In this document: positions 649 through 10,073 of the stretch, one piece after another
Numbering within the stretch: position 1 is the first letter of the stretch
How the letters are laid out: every line of letters starts with the position of its first letter
Source: Oscillatoria sp. PCC 10802
Lineage (GTDB): Bacteria > Cyanobacteriota > Cyanobacteriia > Cyanobacteriales > Oscillatoriaceae
Length of the DNA stretch: 10,073 nucleotides
Direction of reading: 5' to 3'
NCBI RefSeq assembly: GCF_000332335.1
Contig: NZ_KB235948.1
Span: 2,730,440 to 2,740,512 of the forward strand
Translations under genes and position numbers: made by a program
Notes under the pieces: generated by a model
Database searches by the model: none
The model's input: the letters and a program-made list of their open reading frames with translations, nothing else
What the model was told of the DNA's origin: nothing

Positions 649-712
649 GGGGGTTTTACCCCACCCCCAACCCCTCACCGTTAACGGGGAGGGGAGCTTT
701 CTGGGAACCCTT
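649..712. repeat. G/C-rich palindromic mini-repeat, copy R1 (CCCCACCCCCAACCCCTCACC-GTTAAC-GGGGAGGGGA followed by GCTTTCTGGGAACCC).
   Basis: Shares CACCCCCAACCCCTC plus a hairpin with the reverse complement of 7431-7470. Shares TTCTGGGAACC with 6643-6660. Confidence 0.6.
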
Positions 713-796
713 GTTCTCCCCTTTCTCGTCTTTTATCGAAAAAAAACCCGCACATTTTGAAAGTCTCGCTCTACTCTTAGCCCGCGTTGAGCGAAG

Positions 797-853
797 AGTA
801 GATCGATACTCTCAAAAATTGCGGGGTGTTTCTCTCATTTGATTCTCACGGCT
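797..853. repeat. Copy B of the ~60-bp direct repeat (AGTAGATCGATACTCTCAAAAATTGCGGGGTGTTTCTCTCATTTGATTCTCACGGC). Preceded by hairpin TCTACTCTT-N15-AAGAGTAGA (768-800).
   Basis: Direct alignment with 410-475. Confidence 0.7.
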
Positions 854-1101
854 CACATTCTTGTGATTTCACTTTTTCTTTATAAATCACCCGCCCACCG
901 GCTCTCTCTTTCGGTAGAATTTAGTAGCCGGCTCTGACAAATGTAGCCGGAGATACAGCCAGTTAAATCAATATGAGCTATAATCATAGAAGCCGGCGCA
1001 AACAGGCGTTGCAGATGTGTGGGATGATGGGGTTCCCCGGTGGTCTAAGATGTTAATTACATAACAGCCCCTGACAAGATAAAACAAAGGAAATCTCTCT
1101 T

Positions 1102-2463
1102 ATGGCAGATGCAATTGAAAAGCAGCCCCCTCACCATGTCGTGATTGTCGGAGGCGGTTTTGGCGGACTTTATGCGGCGCAGGCGCTCCGTCGCGCCCCG
1201 GTTAAGGTGACGCTGATTGACAAGCGCAATTTTCACCTATTTCAGCCCCTCCTGTACCAAGTCGCCACCGGCACCCTGTCGCCGGCGGACATTTCCTCAC
1301 CGCTGCGGGCTGTGCTCAGCCGCAACAAGAATACCACAGTCCTGCTGGGTGAGGTGACAGATATTGACGCGCAAGGGCAAAAAGTTATCATGCGCGGGGG
1401 AGAGGTGAGTTATGATACCTTAATTGTAGCCACCGGCGCGAGCCACCACTACTTCGGAAAAGACGAGTGGGAGCCGTTTGCGCCCGGTTTGAAAACGGTG
1501 GAAGGGGCGCTAGAAATCCGCCGGCGCGTTTTCATGGCTTTTGAAGCGGCGGAAAAGGAAACTGACGCGGAAAAACGGCAAGCGTGGCTGACTTTTGCCA
1601 TTGTGGGGGGTGGTCCAACGGGTGTGGAATTAGCCGGCGCTATTGCGGAACTCGCCCACAATACGCTGAAGGACGATTTCCGCAATATTGACACAACGGA
1701 AGCGGAAATAGTATTATTGGAAGGGACGGATCGGATTCTGCCGCCTTACCCGACGGCACTGTCAGCAGAAGCGGAACAAGCCCTGCACCGGCTGGGGGTG
1801 AGAGTGCGGACAAAAACCCTGGTGACGAAGATAGAAGGCGATACGGTTGCGGTGCGCGAGGGGGAGAAAGAAGAGGAGATAAAAGCGCGAACCGTGCTGT
1901 GGGCGGCTGGGGTGAAAGCTTCTAAGCTGGGACAGGTTTTGGCGCAGCGAGCCGGCGCTCAACTCGACAGAGTGGGGCGGGTGATTGTGGAGCCGGATTT
2001 GAGTGTGGGGGGATATGGGAATATTTTTGTGATTGGGGATTTGGCGAATTATTCCCATCAGGAGGGGAAACCGCTACCGGGTATCGCGCCGGTGGCGATG
2101 CAGGAAGGGGAATATGTGGCGAAGCTGATTAAAGAGCGGCTGAAAGGCAACAGTGCGCCGGCTTTCCGGTATGTGGATACCGGCAGTTTGGCGGTGATTG
2201 GGCGGAATGCGGCTGTGGTGGATTTGGGGTATGTGAAGCTGTCGGGTTTCCTGGCGTGGCTGATTTGGGTGTTTGTGCACATCTACTTTTTGATTGAGTT
2301 TGACAATAAACTGGTGGTGATGCTGCAGTGGGGGTGGAATTATTTCACGCGCAAGGGCGGCGCTCGCTTGATTACGGGGGATGAGTCTGTGGGGCGCATC
2401 GCCGTGGATGAGGGGGGGAATTATTCCGTGCCGGTGGGTAAGAAAGAGCCGGTGGAGGTGTAG
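1102..2463 (+). CDS. ndh: Type II NADH:quinone oxidoreductase (NDH-2, FAD-dependent pyridine nucleotide-disulfide oxidoreductase family), 453 aa.
   Basis: N-terminal Rossmann FAD motif VVIVGGGFGGLYAA. Second dinucleotide-binding motif FAIVGGGPTGVELAG. Hydrophobic C-terminal stretch FLAWLIWVFVHIYFLI typical of NDH-2 membrane anchoring. ATG start with AAGGAAA about 12 nt upstream. Confidence 0.9.
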   Translation: MADAIEKQPPHHVVIVGGGFGGLYAAQALRRAPVKVTLIDKRNFHLFQPLLYQVATGTLSPADISSPLRAVLSRNKNTTVLLGEVTDIDAQGQKVIMRGGEVSYDTLIVATGASHHYFGKDEWEPFAPGLKTVEGALEIRRRVFMAFEAAEKETDAEKRQAWLTFAIVGGGPTGVELAGAIAELAHNTLKDDFRNIDTTEAEIVLLEGTDRILPPYPTALSAEAEQALHRLGVRVRTKTLVTKIEGDTVAVREGEKEEEIKARTVLWAAGVKASKLGQVLAQRAGAQLDRVGRVIVEPDLSVGGYGNIFVIGDLANYSHQEGKPLPGIAPVAMQEGEYVAKLIKERLKGNSAPAFRYVDTGSLAVIGRNAAVVDLGYVKLSGFLAWLIWVFVHIYFLIEFDNKLVVMLQWGWNYFTRKGGARLITGDESVGRIAVDEGGNYSVPVGKKEPVEV

Positions 2464-2493
2464 TGGTAGGAGGATTTTAACCGCAGATGCAGG

Positions 2494-2550
2494 CAGATAA
2501 ACGCAGATGAAGAGGATTATCTGCGTTCATCTCCGTTTATCTGCGGTTTG
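2494..2550 (+). terminator. Nested palindrome downstream of ndh. An 18-bp stem CAGATAAACGCAGATGAA / TTCATCTCCGTTTATCTG matches at 17 of 18 positions. A 14-nt loop is followed by GGTTTG. Candidate intrinsic terminator.
   Basis: Arms read directly (2494-2511 and 2526-2543). The U-tract is only 3 T. A second perfect 6-bp hairpin GCACAG-TTAT-CTGTGC lies at 2561-2576. Confidence 0.4.
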
Positions 2551-2935
2551 AAAAAGTCCCGCACAGTTATCTGTGCCACCATCGGGTGAGCCGGTTGAGG
2601 ATAGATGGGCGATTGTGCCAAGCTTGATAAAATTCCGGGTAGGGCATAGTTTGGGCGCAGTGCAAGATGAGTTTGTACCACTTCTCGAATCGCTCATATT
2701 TCATTATCTAACTTATCATTTATGCTGCTTTTCTGCGGGTATATTTATCCCGTTCTGACTCGATGACTCGCACTAACGTCTCCATAGCTATTTGATTGCC
2801 GGTGCCACAAACTCCAAGTGCTGCAGCGCCAGCCGCAGGGTATTTTTCTTCATATCCTTGATGCGATCTTTGTCCAGTTCGTTTAGCGCTCGCCGCGATT
2901 CGCAGCGCCAAAAGAAACAAAATACAAAAGAGGCG

Positions 2936-2994
2936 GCTGTTAATTGTTAAGAAAATTTACTGTTATTACAATAAACCTTTAACAATTAACAAGC
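2936..2994 (-). terminator. 15-bp inverted repeat (GCTGTTAATTGTTAA / TTAACAATTAACAAGC) with a 28-nt spacer. On the - strand it is followed by a T-rich tract (CTCTTTTGTATTTTGTTTCTTTT). Candidate terminator of the protease operon, or a palindromic operator.
   Basis: Arms read directly. Lies ~113 nt beyond the protease stop on the - strand. The stem is AT-rich, which weakens the terminator reading. Confidence 0.35.
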
Positions 2995-3106
2995 CACCAC
3001 CTATTAGGCTGGGCGACGCTCACCCTACCTGCAGAATGCTTCTGCGTAAGTCCTGGTCAACTCAGGAATAAAATAGCCCTGCCTTAAAATCAAAGGGGTG
3101 GTTTGC

Positions 3107-4018
3107 CTACCGGGGTATATAATTGACAATTATGTCAGCTTTTAGCCAGCCTCGTCCCAAGTAGTCTACGATTATGCCGCCTATTCTTCTGACTCCCTTT
3201 CCTTGCAAATGGGCGTACACGTCCACACAATTTGGTTGTCCGGCAACAATCTCAATCTTTTCAAAATAGGAATAGCCTCCATCAGAAATCATTAAGGGGG
3301 GTTGCCAATTCACAATCTCGCGGGCTTCTGGAACGCAAAACCTTTGAACGACTTGGCGATTGTCTGTATGATCTACACGCACGTCAAAGCGAAAGGTTCG
3401 CTGTTGCACTGGTGGTGGGGGAGGTGGGGGAAGTGGGGGAGCATCATGAAAACTTTTGAGGTTAGGGAACTCTTCAAAAATAACCTTTGTGGGCACTCCA
3501 TACCCACCTAAATTACTATAAATGTTGCGACTATCACTAATAATGCCGCACACCTTTCCGGTGTTTTCATTTAGCAAGGGTGAACCGCTGAATCCAGGAG
3601 CAGCTTGCCCCTCAGTGAATTTGATCAATTCTGGGTTTCTCCCGCAGACACCTTCACATTTATACGTTGCTGATTCCCCCTTGAAATGACTAATTTCAGT
3701 ATAGCCATAGGTGGAAAAGGAGTCACCGACTTGGAAAGACTCATCCAAAGACACGCAAGGTTGTCTGGGAATACTATTATTTAACCGGATAAGTGCTAAA
3801 TCAACTTTAGCAGTATCTTCCGCTCTTCCCACAACTGTGGCGGGGTATTCTTGATTTTGCCAGTAAACCGTGACCGACTGCTGATCCTTAACCACATGAG
3901 CGCAGGTGAGAATCAGCCCCTCAGCAGCCACAAAAAATCCTGTTCCGCTCTCTGTATTTGCACTTATCCGCACAGTGCATTGTTTCAACTGCTCGCACAG
4001 CTCGTTCAGATCCGTCAT
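3107..4018 (-). CDS. Cytoplasmic trypsin-like serine peptidase (S1/chymotrypsin fold, compact Trypsin_2-like), 303 aa. Carries a poly-proline linker (PPLPPPPPPPV) and an unassigned ~100-aa C-terminal domain.
   Basis: Catalytic triad in canonical order and context: His in GLILTCAHVV, Asp in VDLALIRL, Ser in GFSGSPLL. No signal peptide. ATG start with GAGG about 12 nt upstream. Lies 44 bp downstream of the co-oriented small ORF. Confidence 0.8.
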   Translation of the reverse strand: MTDLNELCEQLKQCTVRISANTESGTGFFVAAEGLILTCAHVVKDQQSVTVYWQNQEYPATVVGRAEDTAKVDLALIRLNNSIPRQPCVSLDESFQVGDSFSTYGYTEISHFKGESATYKCEGVCGRNPELIKFTEGQAAPGFSGSPLLNENTGKVCGIISDSRNIYSNLGGYGVPTKVIFEEFPNLKSFHDAPPLPPPPPPPVQQRTFRFDVRVDHTDNRQVVQRFCVPEAREIVNWQPPLMISDGGYSYFEKIEIVAGQPNCVDVYAHLQGKGVRRIGGIIVDYLGRGWLKADIIVNYIPR

Positions 4019-4061
4019 CCCCTTCTTGCCTCGCTAATAGCCAAAAACTACATGTTGACCT

Positions 4062-4412
4062 TCAGTTGCTTGAAGCATCGCGTGTTGGAATGTCTTCCTT
4101 TGCCCACTCCATAGTAATTTCTAGGTTTCCCTTGCTAGAGCCTTTTACAATCAGTGCTGTTAGCTGTCCCGACTCTAGTGCAACTTCTAACCCTAATTTT
4201 ACACTCGTTTTAGTAGGCTTTACCTGCTGCAAATGGTTGACTATCGCAGCGGCAATCCCCTCAATTGAATTAGTTAAATTATCCAAAGATAAGATTTGAG
4301 ATGAAGAGCTAATCTTCTGAGAGCCACCCAGCATCCTTGCTTCAATGTTTACCTCCTGGCCATTCGGAAGCTTAACTCGAACAATTTCTGTGCGTTCTGC
4401 GCCAGATTGCAT
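4062..4412 (-). CDS. Small soluble protein, 116 aa, co-transcribed immediately upstream of the trypsin-like peptidase. Possible trypsin-co-occurring (Trypco-like) partner, regulator or substrate.
   Basis: ATG start preceded by a strong SD (CTAAGGAGAAGAAATT-ATG). Same strand as the peptidase with a 44-bp gap. Beta-rich pattern SVKLGLEVALESGQLTALIVKGSSKGNLEITMEW. No TM or signal peptide. AT-richer than the flanking genes. Confidence 0.6.
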   Translation of the reverse strand: MQSGAERTEIVRVKLPNGQEVNIEARMLGGSQKISSSSQILSLDNLTNSIEGIAAAIVNHLQQVKPTKTSVKLGLEVALESGQLTALIVKGSSKGNLEITMEWAKEDIPTRDASSN

Positions 4413-5018
4413 AATTTCTTCTCCTTAGAGATTGAGGTATTGTTTTGAATCTGTCCGTGAGCCCCCCACCCAAACCCATCCAGCCGAGCTGGGGAACTCA
4501 TCAGCCTTTTTCCCACCACCCTCACCGCCATCCGGAAACTTTTTACATTTCTTCATCAACGAGCCTCCGAACCCCCCCAGCACCGGCACCCAACTCACTC
4601 CCCTCCCCCGCCCCCAGAATGCCGGCACGCCAGAGCCCCACCGGCTAAGTCGCTGGAGTCTTCAACCGGATGTCTTAAAATATCTGCCTTAGCCCAAATC
4701 GCGTAAACTCTACGCTGAAAGCATTTACGCTGCTAACGCCCGCAAAAGATTGCGTATTTTCCGGCAGAATACATAAGCAAACGCCCCCCACCGGCAGGCT
4801 CGCTCGGCGCACCGGCAGCCGGTGTGTTGCGCCAAGTTGCCGGTGGCTTCCCCAGCACCCAATATAGCGGCAAAGCCGGTGTTGCACAGAGCTGAAGAAC
4901 CCCGTGGGGTTAAATCCTGTTGCTGTAAACGCGACTCCCGACACTATCCCTCTTTATACAACAAGCAAATTAAAAGCGCAACCCCTTGCGATCCCCACCC
5001 CCACCAAACAGCTACAGC

Positions 5019-6383
5019 TTATTCCAGAGAGAGCTCGCAGCTCTCCTCACTAACCGGCACAGCCTCCGGAGCCAGCAAGTTAACTTTCACGTTTTGCCGG
5101 ATAGGAATTTCAATTGCAAACTCCGCTCCCCGCCCGGGCGCTGAAACACAAACAAGCCGCCCGCCGTGTTTTTTCACCACAATCTGGTAGCTAATGGACA
5201 GCCCCAAGCCGGTGCCGCTCCCCACCGGCTTAGTCGTAAAAAACGGGTCAAATATTCTATGAAGCACATCTTCACTCATGCCCGGCCCATTGTCAATAAT
5301 CCGGATTCTCACGCAGTCAAAGGAAGACACTTCAGTGCGAATCCGAATGCAGGGAAAAAACCCTGACTTGTCACGAGAGGAACCATCACCCCCCACTTGC
5401 GAATTCCCACACCCCATCCCTTCTTCAAGGGCATCAATCGCATTCGTAAGAATATGCATAAACACTTGGTTTAGCTCGCCGGCGTAGCAGGTAACTTCTG
5501 GAACATCCCCGTACTCTTTAACCACTTCGATATCAGCCAGACGCCCGTCTTTTTTGAACCGGTGCTGCAAAAATAGCAGCGTGCTGTCAATGCATTCGTG
5601 AATGTTCACCGGCTTGATATCCGATTCATTCAGCCGGGAAAAAGTCCGCAAACTCAACACCATATTGCGGATGCGATCGGCTCCCACTTTCATCGAATCC
5701 AGAATTTTTTGCACATCCTCAACCATAAATTCCAGGTCGATGCTCTCAGTAGCCGCTTTAATCTCCGGTGCCGGATTGGGGTAAGTTTTTTGGTAGAGGT
5801 CGAGCAGATTGAGCAATTCTTGAATATAGCTATTGATCGGGAACAGATTCCCGTAAATAAAGCTGATGGGGTTGTTAATTTCGTGGGCGACACCCGCCAC
5901 TATCTGCCCCAAGCTGGACATTTTAGCCGCCTGAATCACTTGCGCTTGGGTGGCGCGAAGTTCCGAGAGCGTTTGTTCCAGCGTTTTTGTCAGAGTGCGC
6001 ATTTTGACGTGCGCATTGATGCGAGCCAAAACCTCCTCTTGCTGGAATGGCTTGGTAATGTAATCCACTGCGCCCATAGAAAACCCCTTCACCTTATCCA
6101 CCGTCTCAGAAAGAGCCGTCATAAAAATCACGGGGATGTCTTTCGTTGCCTCATTTGCCTTCAGCCGCCGGCAAGTTTCAAACCCGTCGATTCCGGGCAT
6201 CATCACATCCAGCAAAATCAGAGCCGGCGGGTCGTATTGCACCTTGCGGATAGCACTTTCTCCATCTCGCGCTACCCGCACACCAAACCCAGCTTGATTC
6301 AAAACCGCAGAGAGCAAACTCAAATTGGCCGGGGTGTCATCGACGATTAAGATAGCAGCTATATCACCCTTTTTATCGTTCAT
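5019..6383 (-). CDS. Hybrid two-component protein: N-terminal receiver (REC) domain fused to a histidine kinase (HisKA + HATPase_c). 454 aa from the ATG at 6383, or 473 aa if the TTG at 6440 is used.
   Basis: REC acidic pocket (LIVDD ... LILLDVMMPGIDG ... K in DYITKPF). H-box AHEINNPISF. N/G boxes IIDNGPGM and GTGLGLSIS. The ORF-track start at 6440 is a TTG. An in-frame ATG (MNDKKGD...) at 6383 gives a canonical receiver N-terminus. Confidence 0.85.
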   Translation of the reverse strand: MNDKKGDIAAILIVDDTPANLSLLSAVLNQAGFGVRVARDGESAIRKVQYDPPALILLDVMMPGIDGFETCRRLKANEATKDIPVIFMTALSETVDKVKGFSMGAVDYITKPFQQEEVLARINAHVKMRTLTKTLEQTLSELRATQAQVIQAAKMSSLGQIVAGVAHEINNPISFIYGNLFPINSYIQELLNLLDLYQKTYPNPAPEIKAATESIDLEFMVEDVQKILDSMKVGADRIRNMVLSLRTFSRLNESDIKPVNIHECIDSTLLFLQHRFKKDGRLADIEVVKEYGDVPEVTCYAGELNQVFMHILTNAIDALEEGMGCGNSQVGGDGSSRDKSGFFPCIRIRTEVSSFDCVRIRIIDNGPGMSEDVLHRIFDPFFTTKPVGSGTGLGLSISYQIVVKKHGGRLVCVSAPGRGAEFAIEIPIRQNVKVNLLAPEAVPVSEESCELSLE

Positions 6384-6642
6384 AGTTATTTTTTTATCGC
6401 TGTTTTTTATTTGAGAAAACGGCTGAGCGAAAGACAACAAAGGAGGGGACGAAGTGAGCCGGCGGGTTGAGGGCTCGAAGTAAGTCTGCCTAGCAAACGC
6501 AGAACCTGCGACCTATTTTACCACCAGTCGTCCCAAGATTTGCCACTTGCTGCCGGTGAGCCCAACAATCTTTCCCAAAACTCCCACTGCAGCCATTTCC
6601 GCCCCCTGCCGGCGCTACATCGCTCCGTGCCGGTGCCGGTGC

Positions 6643-6660
6643 GGGTGTCTTCTGGGAACC
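6643..6660. repeat. Mini-repeat copy R2: GGGTGTCTTCTGGGAACC.
   Basis: 17/18 identity with 7467-7483. Shares TTCTGGGAACC with 699-709. Confidence 0.5.
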
Positions 6661-7004
6661 GAATTGTGTGCCGGTTTGACTGTTCATAGTTCATTCAACC
6701 CCCTCAATCCAGATTGCGGGCCCACTCCCCAATGCGAGCCTGAGCCATTTTAATTTATCCTAATGAATTTTTCACCTCTACCCCTTCAATCTTGATTAAG
6801 ATTTATCCGCAATCCCTGATATTATACCCTCACTTCTCACTTAAACCCGATCCCCCGGTACAATCCAGGAATTCTCCCCCGCTTCCCATCCGTTCTATCC
6901 GTTAAATCCCTGATATCCTGTCGTTGAACTGCCGCAATCTGAAACCAAAGCCCAAAGCCCCACGCCCAATGCCCGACCCTCAAGATATTACCGGCATTCA
7001 ACCT

Positions 7005-7020
7005 GATATAATATTATATC
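7005..7020. promoter_or_regulatory. Perfect 16-bp palindrome GATATAATATTATATC, 55-70 bp downstream of the nnr stop. It contains TGATATAAT, an extended -10 that reads identically on both strands.
   Basis: Reverse complement equals itself, checked base by base. Confidence 0.4.
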
Positions 7021-7074
7021 CCTCATTCCTAGCCTTTATATCGCCCCTTAGATAGAGGAACAAAATTGAACCTA

Positions 7075-8661
7075 TTACTTCGCGTAGTTGCGCAGCACCG
7101 GCACTAAATACTGCGCCAGCGTAAACGCATCGACCCCCAGCTGACTCCGCTCCTGCGCCGCCAGAATGCCGGCGCTCGCGTGCCACCACACCGCTAGTTT
7201 GCATGAGTCTTCAACCGGCTTTTCCGCAACAGCCGCCTGCGCCCACAAGCCCCCCATCAGCCCCGTAAGCACATCCCCGCTGCCGCCGCGAGCCAAAGCC
7301 GGCGTACTTTCCGGCTGCACCCACACCGTACCGTCCGGATGCGCCACTGCCGTTCGCGCCCCCTTCAGCAGCACGACAGCCCCAGTTTGCATCGCCGCCG
7401 CCCGCACAGCAGCAATTCTGCCTCCGTATCTCCCCTCTCCCTCAATGGGAGAGGGGTTGGGGGTGAGGGTGTCTTCTGGAAACAAACGCTTGAACTCACC
7501 GAGATGGGGCGTCAGCACTGCCGGCGCTCGCCGCTCAGTCAGTGTTGCAATCGCCCCCAGATGCGCCAGCACATTCAGCCCGTCCGCATCCAAAACCAGA
7601 GGGGGAGAGCTCTCCAGCACCGCCTCCACCACCGGCGCAGCCCCCACCGTCAGCCCCGGACCGCACGCGATCGCACTGTAAGAATTCAAATCGGCACCTG
7701 GCGGCAGACCTGCGATCGCCCCCGCCTCCGTTTCCGGACACCCGACAATCAGCGCCTCTGGCAGCTGCAAACTCAGCAGCGGCTTAACCGACTCCGGAAC
7801 CGCCACCGAGAGCATCCCCACCCCAGACGCCCGCGCCCCCAAACCCGCCAAAATTGCCGCGCCGGTGTACTTGCGCGAACCGCAAACCAGCAGCAAGTGC
7901 CCCATCTTGTACTTGTGCGACGCCGGCGGGCGGGGGATGGGGAGGTGCGACAGCGCGACTGCCGGTGTGATGCGCCGGATTGCCGGTGGCTCGCCGAGTA
8001 CCGCCCGGATATCCGCCAGCGGCAAATCAAAATCAACCAGCTCCGCCTCACCAATATACTCTAGCGCCCCATCTTGCAGGAACGCCAGCTTCCACAGCCC
8101 CAAGCAAAACGTCCGCGCCGCCCGAATCGCAGTGCCCAAAACCTCGCCGGTATCCGTGTGCAGCCCCGAAGGAATATCCACACTCAGCACCGGCACCCCC
8201 CAGCGATTCACCTCATCGATCGCCGCCGCAACCGCACCGTCGAGCGAACGCTCCAACCCAAAGCCAAACAGCCCGTCAACCAGCAAGTCACACCCTTGCA
8301 GCGGCTCAACTTCCTGATAGAACGGAATTCCCAGACTCGCCACATACCGGGCGTGCTGTCCCGTCAGTTCCTTAAGCTTAGAAAACGGCGAATACACCGC
8401 CACCTCAAAACCCCGCCAGTGCAGCTCCCTAGCCACAACCAAAGCGTCCCCCCCATTGTGCCCCGGACCAACCAGCACACCGGCACGCACCGGCTGCCGG
8501 TATAGCTCCTGAATCCGCTTCGCAACCAGTCCCGCCACCTTTTCCATCAGCGCCGGCACCGGCATTCCCGCCTCAAACACGCGCCCCTCAATCGCACGCA
8601 TTTGCTCAGCCGTCACAGCAAACTGGTGAATCTGCTCAACCCTGTCCTGAATTCGCCCCAC
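7075..8661 (-). CDS. nnr: Bifunctional NAD(P)H-hydrate repair enzyme Nnr, 528 aa, GTG start. N-terminal NAD(P)H-hydrate epimerase (YjeF_N) fused to C-terminal ADP-dependent (S)-NAD(P)H-hydrate dehydratase (YjeF_C, carbohydrate-kinase fold).
   Basis: N-terminal VTAEQMRAIEG ... LVGPGHNGGDALVVAREL. C-terminal GGSGDVLTGL. An upstream in-frame stop at 8686-8688 rules out a longer N-terminus. Confidence 0.9.
   Translation of the reverse strand: MGRIQDRVEQIHQFAVTAEQMRAIEGRVFEAGMPVPALMEKVAGLVAKRIQELYRQPVRAGVLVGPGHNGGDALVVARELHWRGFEVAVYSPFSKLKELTGQHARYVASLGIPFYQEVEPLQGCDLLVDGLFGFGLERSLDGAVAAAIDEVNRWGVPVLSVDIPSGLHTDTGEVLGTAIRAARTFCLGLWKLAFLQDGALEYIGEAELVDFDLPLADIRAVLGEPPAIRRITPAVALSHLPIPRPPASHKYKMGHLLLVCGSRKYTGAAILAGLGARASGVGMLSVAVPESVKPLLSLQLPEALIVGCPETEAGAIAGLPPGADLNSYSAIACGPGLTVGAAPVVEAVLESSPPLVLDADGLNVLAHLGAIATLTERRAPAVLTPHLGEFKRLFPEDTLTPNPSPIEGEGRYGGRIAAVRAAAMQTGAVVLLKGARTAVAHPDGTVWVQPESTPALARGGSGDVLTGLMGGLWAQAAVAEKPVEDSCKLAVWWHASAGILAAQERSQLGVDAFTLAQYLVPVLRNYAK
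7426..7484. repeat. Mini-repeat copy R3 inside the nnr coding sequence: TCCCCTCTCCC-TCAAT-GGGAGAGGGGA, then TTGGGGGTGAGGGTG, then TCTTCTGGAAAC. On the - strand it encodes the in-frame peptide FPEDTLTPNPSPIEGEGRYGG.
   Basis: The reverse complement matches R1 (CACCCCCAACCCCTC plus hairpin). It shares a 17-mer with R2. The translation was verified codon by codon. Confidence 0.6.
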
Positions 8662-8935
8662 TGCTTTACCCGAACGCCAACATTTTTAACATATCAGCGA
8701 GCCGGTTGCGATGGGAATTTTATTAATGTAAAATCCCAAATCTCAAAATTCTGTCCTGTTCAGGTAAGCTGTGGCGCATTGAATTTGCCCTATCCACCTC
8801 TATCCCCTCGTTACCATGCTCTGCCTGGTAACGCCCCTCGGGAGGCTCTGCCTCCTTTCTGCAACAAGCAGATTAAAAGCTTAACAGCTTATCGCACAGA
8901 ACCGAGCAACTCGAAGATCCCCCCTCACCCCCGGG

Positions 8936-8970
8936 GAAAAATGGGGCAAACCGGCCAGCCCCCCCTTTTT
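8936..8970 (-). terminator. Bidirectional terminator-like structure: an A-run (AAAAA), hairpin GGGGCAAACCGGCCAGCCCC, then CCCTTTTT. It sits 60-95 bp past the stop of the SPOR-like gene.
   Basis: Read directly. The stem is short (4-6 bp), so confidence is modest. Confidence 0.35.
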
Positions 8971-9029
8971 CACTGGGATTGGCGGGATCTAGCCCCTGTG
9001 CGAAGTCGGGGGCTCTCCAGCAGGCAACT

Positions 9030-9698
9030 CTAAAAATTCCCGTAATAAACCCGTGCGTTCTTCAAACCAAAATCCTGGAGATAGAAGTTCCAGCGCTCTG
9101 CCGTATCCCGGTCAGCAAATGGGCCCACCAGAACGTATGGCCCCTGCGGGCTGTCTTGCGGGCTGACCCCGAAATTCACCAGTCCCAGCAGGCGCACTTG
9201 CTCTGCAGTCGCCTGCAAGTCCCTCTCGCGAGCGGGGATAACCACAAAATAGCCGGTGCCATAACTGACGGGGGTCGGTGTGTCCGGTATGTTCGGTATG
9301 TTCGGGATGTCCGGCACCGGCGGTCTTGCCTGCCGGCTCTCGATTGAGGCAATCTCAGCCTTGATGTACTGCGCTTCCAGATCCCTTTCGAGCCGCTTAG
9401 CCCGATCTTTATCGTAAAAAACATTGGCTTGGACGACCACCCGCCCCTTGTACTCCACCAGCTGTGCCTGGGGCTCTATCCTGCGCACCTGTTCCAGCAG
9501 TAGCAGGCTGTTCCCATTGACATAAACCAAGTAGTACCTGTCCGACCTTTGGGCTAGTATTTGGGACTGCGCAGCCTCTGGGAGAGGGGTTTGTCCGAGA
9601 GGTTGAGCCCCGGCGGCGGTATTCCACGCCAGTAACAAACACCCCCCCAAAAGCAGCCGAGCGGGGGTGAGCACAGAGGGGACCGAGCTTTCAGGCAT
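9030..9698 (-). CDS. Probable secreted or lipoprotein with SPOR-like (peptidoglycan-binding) repeat architecture, ~222 aa from the ATG at 9698. Contains a tandem IPNIPNIPD segment.
   Basis: N-terminus MPESSVPSVLTPARLLLGGCLLLAWNTAAGAQP is signal-peptide-like, with a possible lipobox LGGC. Two Y-rich beta modules are present (YYLVYVNGNS...KRLERDLEAQ and YVLVGPFADRDTAERWNFYLQDFGLKNARVY, the latter resembling the SPOR consensus Y-V-VGPF). The 67 codons upstream in the ORF track (MDFF...) look non-coding. Confidence 0.55.
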   Translation of the reverse strand: MPESSVPSVLTPARLLLGGCLLLAWNTAAGAQPLGQTPLPEAAQSQILAQRSDRYYLVYVNGNSLLLLEQVRRIEPQAQLVEYKGRVVVQANVFYDKDRAKRLERDLEAQYIKAEIASIESRQARPPVPDIPNIPNIPDTPTPVSYGTGYFVVIPARERDLQATAEQVRLLGLVNFGVSPQDSPQGPYVLVGPFADRDTAERWNFYLQDFGLKNARVYYGNF

Positions 9699-9867
9699 AT
9701 CAGTCGCGGATTGACCAAAACGAGGGGACGCCTGTATATACTTATTTCCGGGGGGAGCGCCAGCAAAAGTGCTGAGCGTGCTGGCGCGGGCGTCGCGCCG
9801 GCAAAGCCGGCAACAGCCAAAAAATCGAGACAGCAATCCGGGAAATTCATTTGGTTGGCTGTGCTCA

Positions 9868-10073
9868 GGGGAGCATCCCGGTTGTGGGAAGAAGTCCATA
9901 TCAATGCGACAGTGATTTCAGCAGGGGGTAGGAGGAGAAGATTTTTGGCCAGCTGAATCCCGGCAACGGGATTGAAACACTATACCGAACGGGAGCATCC
10001 CCGTTGTGCAAAGAAGCCCAAATGAATGCGACAATGATTTCAGCAGGGGGTAGGAGCGGATGATTTTTGGCCA
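9868..10073. repeat. Two 84-bp direct repeats (9868-9951 and 9990-10073, ~88% identity, period 122 bp). They are separated by a 38-bp spacer holding a perfect 7-bp hairpin with a GNRA loop (AATCCCG-GCAA-CGGGATT, 9956-9973). The array runs to the window end.
   Basis: Aligned by eye: GGGAGCATCCC(C/G)GTTGTG..AAGAAG.CCA.AT.AATGCGACA.TGATTTCAGCAGGGGGTAGGAG.....GATTTTTGGCCA. Confidence 0.8.

Follow-up and report, generated by a model that had tools for sequence, protein, structure and literature searches.

A BoxC/PIT/TMECO-type repeat carried in frame within the nnr gene of Oscillatoria sp. PCC 10802, and a possible link of its family to DUF559 nucleases

How does a short G/C-rich palindrome come to lie inside the reading frame of an enzyme gene, and by what route could it have arrived there? 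This question is raised by a 10,073-nt stretch of the cyanobacterium Oscillatoria sp. PCC 10802 (contig NZ_KB235948.1, positions 2,730,440 to 2,740,512), hereafter the window, in whose coordinates positions are given. The open reading frame (ORF) at 7075-8661 on the minus strand is nnr, which encodes a bifunctional NAD(P)H-hydrate epimerase/dehydratase of 528 aa. The assignment follows from the Pfam domains PF03853 (YjeF_N) and PF01256 (Carb_kinase/YjeF_C), from an alignment of Nnr proteins (A1) and from 100% identity to P0001, a protein of Kamptonema formosum. A first-pass annotation, made from the letters of the window, had proposed that a palindromic mini-repeat is lodged in the dehydratase part of this gene. 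We find that the element belongs to the BoxC/PIT/TMECO family, an already-known G/C-rich "intrastrand triplex" repeat, and these existing family names go beyond what had been proposed. With high confidence, the segment is a solo BoxC/TMECO-type element that entered a permissive loop of Nnr without breaking the frame and has been carried as a passenger since.

The in-frame element in nnr

Read on the coding strand from 7468 to 7430, the insert consists of an asymmetric C-rich tail of 12 nt (CCTCACCCCCAA, 7457-7468, minus strand), a hairpin and a terminal AG, 39 nt or 13 codons in all. The hairpin is perfect, with 10 bp and no mismatches: its arms, CCCCTCTCCC and GGGAGAGGGG, occupy 7432-7441 and 7447-7456 around the loop ATTGA at 7442-7446. 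We built a covariance model, R1, from 14 equal-length copies at unrelated metagenomic loci (loop lengths differ across the family), and this model matches 7430-7468 on the minus strand at 50.5 bits (E 9e-11) over model positions 1-37. Scanning the window with R1 gave nothing convincing besides this match and one at 659-696 on the plus strand (34.1 bits, E 8e-7), and the number of family copies in the 10 kb is two. The second copy is intergenic and reads CCCCACCCCCAA + CCCCTCACCGTTAACGGGGAGGGG + AG, with its hairpin at 671-694 containing 1 mismatch. The two copies share an exact 15-mer, CACCCCCAACCCCTC, which occurs twice in the window, at 662-676 (plus) and 7451-7465 (minus), against 0.04 occurrences expected. 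The proposal of a G/C-rich palindromic repeat in frame in nnr is therefore borne out, while its extent (7426-7484, about 15 residues) is revised to 7430-7468, with 13 codons and a net gain of 11 residues. Likewise, the intergenic copy that had been placed at 649-712 is a true member of the family with narrower bounds. A 71-nt RNA containing the nnr hairpin folds at -28 kcal/mol (z = -2.8). The insert is also present in independent assemblies, namely the JGI metagenome contigs L002 and L003 and the Logan contig L332, the last being 100% identical to window positions 704-9926.

At the DNA level the element is read through in frame and free of stops, as the first-pass annotation had it; it starts with the third base of codon T398 and ends two bases into R411. 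The peptide it would contribute is TLTPNPSPIEGEGR, residues 398-411, which may be written (T)LTPNPSPIEGEG(R). The insert lies in the Carb_kinase/YjeF_C domain between the conserved blocks LTPHLGEFKRLFP and RIAAVRAAA..VVLLKG, and an alignment of 26 cyanobacterial Nnr proteins confirms that position. Only three of the 26 carry the extra segment: the query, P0002 (94% identity) and P0003 (91%). In the other 23, which are 62-72% identical to the query, a linker of 8 residues (PDxxDxxxDR) takes the place of 19 residues in the query, so that the net gain is 11 residues in the query and 15 in P0002. The solved homologues Tm0922 and YxkO (PDB) also have a short linker at this position. Taken together, the alignment supports the expectation that residues ~398-415 are an insertion. 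Homologues had been said to have a short helix at the site; what they have there is a short linker, and a helix is not demonstrated. In an AlphaFold2 model of Nnr (mean pLDDT 71.5), residues 394-414 form a coil between helices 387-393 and 415-426, and pLDDT is below 50 at residues 400-413. The insert is thus predicted to be a disordered surface loop between two helices of the dehydratase domain, which agrees with the suggestion of a tolerated surface loop.

The insertion most likely took place in the common ancestor of the Kamptonema formosum clade, after its split from cyanobacteria whose Nnr is ~70% identical. Its persistence could be accounted for by several properties: a length of 3n (39 nt), frames of which 4 of 6 are open in the nnr copy, a Pro/Ser/Gly-rich peptide and a surface-linker site between two helices. 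For Nnr, we infer a neutral, tolerated passenger rather than an adaptation.

A third copy had been proposed at 6643-6660, where a 17-mer, GGGTGTCTTCTGGGAAC, recurs. This site has no tail, no hairpin and no match to R1, and we rejected the 17-mer as a part of the element. The match of 6643-6659, 16 of 17 positions, is to 7467-7483, which is flanking sequence of the nnr copy and consists mostly of the native codons L-F-P-E-D. Nor is the 17-mer conserved: the orthologous site in L001, a relative that carries the nnr gene of P0002, has two further mismatches to it. As a separate observation, a GTTYCCAGAAG(A)C-like motif adjoins both BoxC-type copies (692-708 and 7467-7483) on different sides and occurs once alone (6643-6659); the similar motif beside the intergenic copy, GTTCCCAGAA, lies on the opposite side of the element from the nnr case. 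Coincidence, a preference for certain local targets or a relic could each account for this. The motifs CCAGAA and GAAGAC are not enriched beside 377 elements from other organisms.

The BoxC/PIT/TMECO family and its copies inside genes

Holder et al. 2015 (PMC4666352) treat BoxC, PIT (potential intrastrand triplex) and TMECO as three names of one element with the pattern CCCTCNCCC N3-6 GGGNGAGGG N3 GGGNGAGGG; among the works cited there are BoxC papers of the 1990s and studies by Maher and colleagues from 2000-2002. They count 23 copies in E. coli MG1655 (K-12), "always located intergenically", and 3,610 copies over 262 proteobacterial genomes, and report many G/C-rich motifs in cyanobacteria. 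A single strand of the element forms a stable triplex in vitro; neither in duplex DNA nor in vivo was one detected. TMECO loci are strongly hypervariable, locally, between E. coli strains. We recognized the family through rare full-length E. coli matches in the hrpB-mrcB and yhjE-yhjG spacers, which are classic BoxC repeats. R1 gives these copies 27.6-37.9 bits in two other strains and the K-12 BoxC between fabI and ycjD 26.9 bits.

We then compared the nnr copy with the published motif. Under the intrastrand-triplex (ITxF) rules of stems of 6-15 nt, loops of 1-6 nt and at most 1 mismatch, its three blocks can be laid out as CCCCTCTCCC / TCAAT / GGGAGAGGGG / TTG / GGGGTGAGGG, with one T-for-A position, as in E. 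coli. The third, mirror-repeat block, GGGGTGAGGG, is the complement of the tail and lies at 7460-7469 on the plus strand. The strict TMECO pattern, in which the second loop is exactly 3 nt, misses the nnr copy because its stems and G blocks are 10 nt long and not 9. When the second loop is relaxed to 3-5 nt (CCCTCNCCC-N3-6-GGGNGAGGG-N-GGGNGAGGG), there is one match, at 7433-7469 on the plus strand, against none in 200 shuffles. The intergenic copy at 659-696 does not match the strict E. coli pattern either. The published pattern describes an E. coli subtype and not the whole family. Lying between genes, too, is a property of the E. coli copies and no part of the structural definition, and it does not hold for the nnr copy. 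What the nnr element and BoxC/PIT/TMECO have in common is a C-rich stem, a complementary G-rich stem and a mirror G-rich block, the core CCCTCTCCC ... GGGAGAGGG .. GGGTGAGGG and one covariance model that scores both. The family is dispersed and multi-copy, and the 10 kb of the window contain two copies. The nnr copy differs in being intragenic, within the reading frame, and in its 10-nt stems; an association with DUF559, described below, is absent from PMC4666352. With their hairpin and mirror-repeat tail, BoxC-type copies can presumably fold, when single-stranded, into an intrastrand triplex. We also weighed a G-quadruplex on the G-rich strand and dropped it in favor of the triplex, which has experimental support, together with the hairpin. 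Rfam returned no match at gathering thresholds over the window, only sub-threshold generic hairpins around the element, and contains no family for it. Literature searches with the strings GGGGTTGGGGGTG, CACCCCCAACCCC, GEGLGVR and PNPSP gave nothing relevant.

An exact scan for the 15-mer over one genome per species (596 Gb) yielded at least 120 loci, a number to be read against about 1,100 chance matches expected by arithmetic. The surroundings of the matches are what identify the element. Among the matches listed, 107 of 136 continue into a stem of at least 6 bp that starts with CCCCTC and ends with GAGGGG, and 73 of these 107 then have AG. The tail is kept in the 136 listed matches as CC(Y)CACCCCCAA, CC(Y) being the three bases 5' of the 15-mer, and there is no flank signal beyond CC(Y)CACCCC(C)-NN-hairpin-AG. 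Outer positions of the stem are near-invariant and inner ones covary, each of the pairs C-G, T-A, G-C and A-T being represented. Listed hosts include Prevotella, Sphingomonas, Planctomycetota, Chloroflexota, Acidobacteriota, candidate-phyla-radiation bacteria, Bradyrhizobium, many cyanobacteria and others. On viral contigs, 76 of 122 15-mer matches have the hairpin and are genuine elements. The earlier proposal of a dispersed repeat family agrees with the covariance-model matches, with the presence of two copies in the window and with the hundreds found in other genomes.

The nnr copy is not alone in lying within a gene. About 40 of 139 listed matches fall within long open frames, and 10 of them are confirmed as real genes by Pfam. 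Solo copies confirmed in this way are in frame in a FAD-linked oxidase, ResB/CcsA (two inverted), EPSP synthase, ThiC, a radical-SAM enzyme, DnaX and a cyanobacterial STAND NTPase-WD40 protein. On plasmids, matches lie under annotated coding sequences for a DNA methyltransferase, a DUF1156 protein, Cas10d and a cobalamin-biosynthesis protein. Element length modulo 3 is uniform (117/114/107 over 338 copies), indicating that in-frame copies are survivors of selection and that the frame is no built-in property. In-frame copies in genuine genes of several phyla, including those for leucyl- and methionyl-tRNA synthetase (LeuRS and MetRS), ThiC and EPSP synthase, go beyond the published accounts that we found. 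We found no paper on copies in coding sequence or on an association with DUF559 (COG2852, PF04480) in a search that covered few subscription journals, so that earlier reports are possible. As far as sequence can tell, then, BoxC-type repeats, described as intergenic, can occupy housekeeping enzyme genes as loops, a behavior so far documented mainly for the Rickettsia palindromic elements (RPE). In gene calling and protein alignment, peptides such as LTPNPSP..GEG and GEGLGVR are to be expected from BoxC-type elements.

RPE are the nearest behavioral parallel. According to the summary of Ogata et al. 2000 and 2002 given in PMC10969869, they are about 100-150 bp long and confined to Rickettsia; they too are palindromes in frame in unrelated housekeeping genes, compatible with fold and function, and are read there as selfish DNA. 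The nnr element is 39 nt long and cyanobacterial, its family spans many phyla and its sequence is unrelated, so that the likeness is one of behavior and not of membership. [quoted passage not shown] However, they have terminal inverted repeats, target-site duplications and a DDE transposase, whereas the BoxC-type element is a single hairpin with no duplication seen.

DUF559 genes and the spread of the repeat

DUF559 is a domain that occurs very commonly and has no assigned function. BoxC/PIT/TMECO repeats, for their part, make their loci unstable and have, to our knowledge, been unexplained since the 1990s, with no known origin or partner protein. The two meet in the MetRS of a betaproteobacterium and the LeuRS of a member of the Chitinophagaceae, where elements flank an in-frame DUF559 (PF04480) segment. 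In LeuRS, the element-DUF559-element unit is read in frame and supplies ~152 residues in place of the 6 found in solved enzymes. Its ends are inverted (CCTCACCCC...GGGGGTGAGG), the ATG of the nuclease lies 1 nt 3' of the upstream element, and the GGAGAGGGG arm of that element resembles a ribosome-binding site. Pfam shows no intein domain in the LeuRS and MetRS units, and the ORF is continuous through the unit. Direct repeats flank neither the nnr copy nor the LeuRS unit. In profile comparisons, DUF559 matches PDB 3HRL, a DUF559 structure, at E 2e-35 and PDB 3R3P, the homing endonuclease I-Bth0305I, at E 5e-6.

At loci picked by the 15-mer alone, a DUF559 segment lies within 300 nt in 6 of 120 listed cases. 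Starting from the gene, we picked 80 metagenomic DUF559 loci by protein similarity (with an alignment of 3 sequences) and searched them with the covariance model, which gave 115 non-overlapping elements. Element density per kb falls with distance from the DUF559 gene, from 4.67 at 0-100 nt to 1.62 at 100-200, 0.40 at 200-400, 0.11 at 400-800 and 0.05 at 800-1600. At least one element is within 200 nt at 54 of the 80 loci. Copies at one locus are on average 88% identical, versus 76% between loci, and several pairs are identical including the loop. DUF559 genes flanked by elements also occur on a Synechocystis plasmid and a Sphingomonas replicon. Phages might be the main vector, given the 76 genuine elements on viral contigs, but in cultured phages the domain is rare (3 of 50,697 records). 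On cyanobacterial plasmids, we also observed that the DUF559 unit adjoins DUF1156 genes or apparently lies inside them: in Synechocystis B12 a short DUF1156 ORF is followed by the DUF559 unit, and in Planktothrix elements are annotated inside the DUF1156 coding sequence.

E. coli offers a further comparison. The K-12 spacer between fabI and ycjD (b1289, encoding a DUF559 protein) holds a BoxC 165 nt past the ycjD stop. The number of BoxC copies per E. coli genome ranges from 1 to ~30, and ycjD is present in 3,378 of 5,426 complete genomes. We took a sample of 60 genomes at even intervals along the ranking of matches. BoxC places number 11-25 (median 19) in the 37 genomes with ycjD, none falling below 11, and 1-18 (median 9) in the 23 that lack it, of which 11 have 4 or fewer. 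For this roughly twofold difference, a Mann-Whitney test that is uncorrected for phylogeny gives p = 8e-10. IHE3034, singled out by Holder et al. (PMC4666352) for having one TMECO, has an efflux operon and no ycjD between fabI and sapF. Set against O157:H7, low-copy strains without ycjD (IHE3034, O25b:H4) suggest that BoxC may decay once ycjD is lost; Salmonella reportedly has no TMECO. A side observation concerns the K-12 fabI-ycjD spacer itself (L331, 2700-2970), in which a degenerate BoxC-like hairpin overlaps the ycjD stop, and a second copy of the last ~23 nt of ycjD, GAATATTCTCCAGCACCGTCTCC (L331 ~2838 and ~2943), stands between the stop and the BoxC. The duplicated 3' end together with the degenerate hairpin suggests a past duplication or rearrangement of a DUF559 unit.

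For the route into nnr, we lean, with somewhat less than even confidence, toward a model in which the elements serve minimal selfish units as cis-acting ends or as landing sites, each unit encoding a single DUF559 endonuclease (YcjD-like, Vsr-fold). Breaks made by the nuclease would be mended on the template of a further copy, which would spread the unit, and solo copies would be left behind as units collapse or decay. Stated for the family as a whole, and held a little more loosely still, BoxC/PIT/TMECO repeats may be the ends or landing pads of pan-bacterial, DUF559-only selfish elements; these and their solo derivatives would colonize even essential genes in frame, no intron or intein being there to remove them, and the 13-residue loop in Nnr would be one footprint. 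The nnr case is itself a curiosity, while the clustering with DUF559 may explain the spread of BoxC-type repeats. We infer from it a mechanistic lead that can be tested, since the association merges two questions into one experiment in E. coli K-12 with ycjD and its BoxC copies.

Two known systems help to place such a unit. REP and REPIN sequences with their RAYT (a Y1 transposase, IS200/IS605-like) are similar in their short G/C-rich hairpin, conserved asymmetric 5' tag and inverted doublets, in hundreds of solo or paired copies per genome and in a single-copy nuclease gene flanked by repeats. They differ in that the GTAG or CGTC tag is absent from the BoxC-type element, whose tail is CCTCACCCCCAA. 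The BoxC-linked gene encodes a PD-(D/E)XK protein of the Vsr fold (DUF559, PF04480) and not an HUH Y1 transposase, although no search was aimed at RAYT. Moreover, REPs are species-specific, whereas the BoxC-type sequence is conserved across phyla. The second system is the EDxHD or Vsr-like homing endonucleases, reportedly the subject of Taylor et al. in 2011 and Dassa et al. in 2009, with I-Bth0305I (PDB 3R3P) as an example. DUF559 is homologous to these enzymes, and in both systems small selfish nuclease ORFs occur inside conserved genes. The EDxHD/Vsr-like enzymes, however, ride on group I introns or inteins that are spliced out, whereas the DUF559 ORF and its repeats are read through in LeuRS and MetRS.

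Several points weigh against the nuclease route and the insertion that it would explain. Holder et al. (PMC4666352) see no link of the repeats to transposons, phages, plasmids or other mobile elements. Element orientation around DUF559 varies, with both tails next to the gene as the commonest paired layout. About one third of the 80 loci have no nearby element, and the plasmid DUF559 genes of the cyanobacteria Pseudanabaena ABRG5-3 and PCC 7002 have none. The 80 loci are relatives of nucleases found beside elements, and the link may be confined to a single clade. In E. coli the contrast runs along phylogroups and thus represents few independent events, and O157:H7 still has 12 copies without ycjD. 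There is no DUF559 gene in the 10-kb window or in 21.6 kb of the relative L002. We found no close relative with an empty nnr site, and therefore the insertion junction is not definable and no target-site duplication is visible. Finally, a nuclease alone leaves movement to non-homologous sites unexplained.

An account that needs no enzyme competes with the nuclease route, and concerns only that part of our interpretation. Non-B DNA (hairpin, triplex) would provoke replication slippage, template switching and error-prone repair, by which the repeats are copied, deleted and mutated, and DUF559 genes would merely share dispensable, break-prone spots with the repeats. The single-strand triplex in vitro and the hypervariability of TMECO loci (PMC4666352) point this way, as does the nnr copy in L001. 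Between the window and L001 (nnr of P0002, 1215-1400), 13 of 45 nt (29%) have diverged in the insert, compared with 2.8-5.6% over the rest of the gene. In L001 the hairpin is destroyed, 12 nt (TTTAGCGGATTT) have been added and several codons have multi-base changes. Such a local burst of change is consistent with the hypermutability reported for TMECO loci (PMC4666352). Solo copies are also far more numerous than DUF559 genes, and O157:H7 keeps its copies in the absence of ycjD. What this account fails to explain is that the 12-nt tails and the stem bases are nearly identical between phyla, although the DUF559 proteins of these share only 33-49% identity, that element density rises roughly 100-fold within 100 nt of a DUF559 gene on either side, that flanking copies at one locus match and that whole element-DUF559-element units lie within LeuRS and MetRS. 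We regard enzyme-free spread as the main rival, somewhat less likely than the nuclease route.

A variant of the nuclease route holds that an element-DUF559-element unit once stood in nnr and that recombination between its flanking copies removed the nuclease ORF, leaving a remnant. Such units do occur in frame in essential genes, and some have direct-repeat flanks that would permit a collapse. Yet there is no DUF559 coding trace beside the nnr copy in any of the three carriers, and the commonest flank layout is inverted, by which a segment is inverted and not deleted. A remnant is accordingly improbable.

It is also possible to imagine that the nnr copy is useful, as an mRNA hairpin that paces translation or stabilizes the message, as a recombination hot spot or as a loop that tunes the dehydratase. 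The contig L002, which is more distant than L001 (its gene has diverged by 6.4-10.8%), has an insert that is identical to that of the window at 44 of 45 positions, and the hairpin is perfect in both. By our estimate, however, one difference against ~3-4 expected is not significant. In the closer relative L001, 8 of 15 insert codons have changed with nnr still intact at 533 aa; since the hairpin is lost there and the gene is not, the hairpin is dispensable for nnr. Earlier work, as cited in PMC4666352, found PIT elements to be without promoter or terminator activity, and the peptide is predicted to be disordered. A useful copy thus appears slightly less probable again than a remnant. The last alternative, a native loop grown in place by slippage of local G/C-rich sequence and resembling the intergenic copy through low complexity, is in line with a C/G-rich region and a linker of variable length among Nnr homologues, but is refuted in practical terms, as the similarity beyond low complexity called for at first pass is seen in the 15-mer (2 versus 0.04 expected), the R1 match from unrelated copies (E 9e-11), the perfect 10-bp stem, the TMECO pattern absent from 200 shuffles and the 39-nt architecture found in many phyla.

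Other repeats and genes in the window

The intergenic BoxC-type copy is surrounded by nested repeats at 355-850: 48-nt inverted arms at 355-402/587-634 (88%), a 51-nt direct repeat at 410-460/797-847 (90%) and further inverted arms at 738-781/791-834. The nest looks like stacked insertions of MITE type. At the left end of the window, positions 1-130 hold 4-5 head-to-tail copies of a 26-nt unit, GGGCTTCAGCCCAAAAGTTCGTAGTT, each with a small hairpin, GGGCTTCAGCCC, and the array extends past the left end. At the right end there is a direct repeat of 83 nt (9869-9951 and 9991-10073, 88% identity). The short-read assembly L332 ends at window position 704, just past the 659-696 copy, and at 9926, with repeats on both sides. 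The octamer CACCGGCA/TGCCGGTG occurs 16 times in the 10 kb, against ~0.3 expected, and there are 14 occurrences of related words such as GCACCGGC, compared with only 2 of HIP1, GCGATCGC, the classical cyanobacterial motif. Perhaps the octamer is hyper-abundant in a lineage-specific way. An inverted repeat of 30 nt (83%, AACCGCAGATGCAGGCAGATAAACGCAGAT) at 2479-2548, just downstream of the NDH-2 gene, may be a terminator or another small repeat. A trypsin-like peptidase gene at 3107-4018 on the minus strand has a gene for Trypco1 (trypsin-co-occurring domain 1) directly after it at 4062-4412, and a response-regulator/histidine-kinase hybrid is encoded at 5019-6440.

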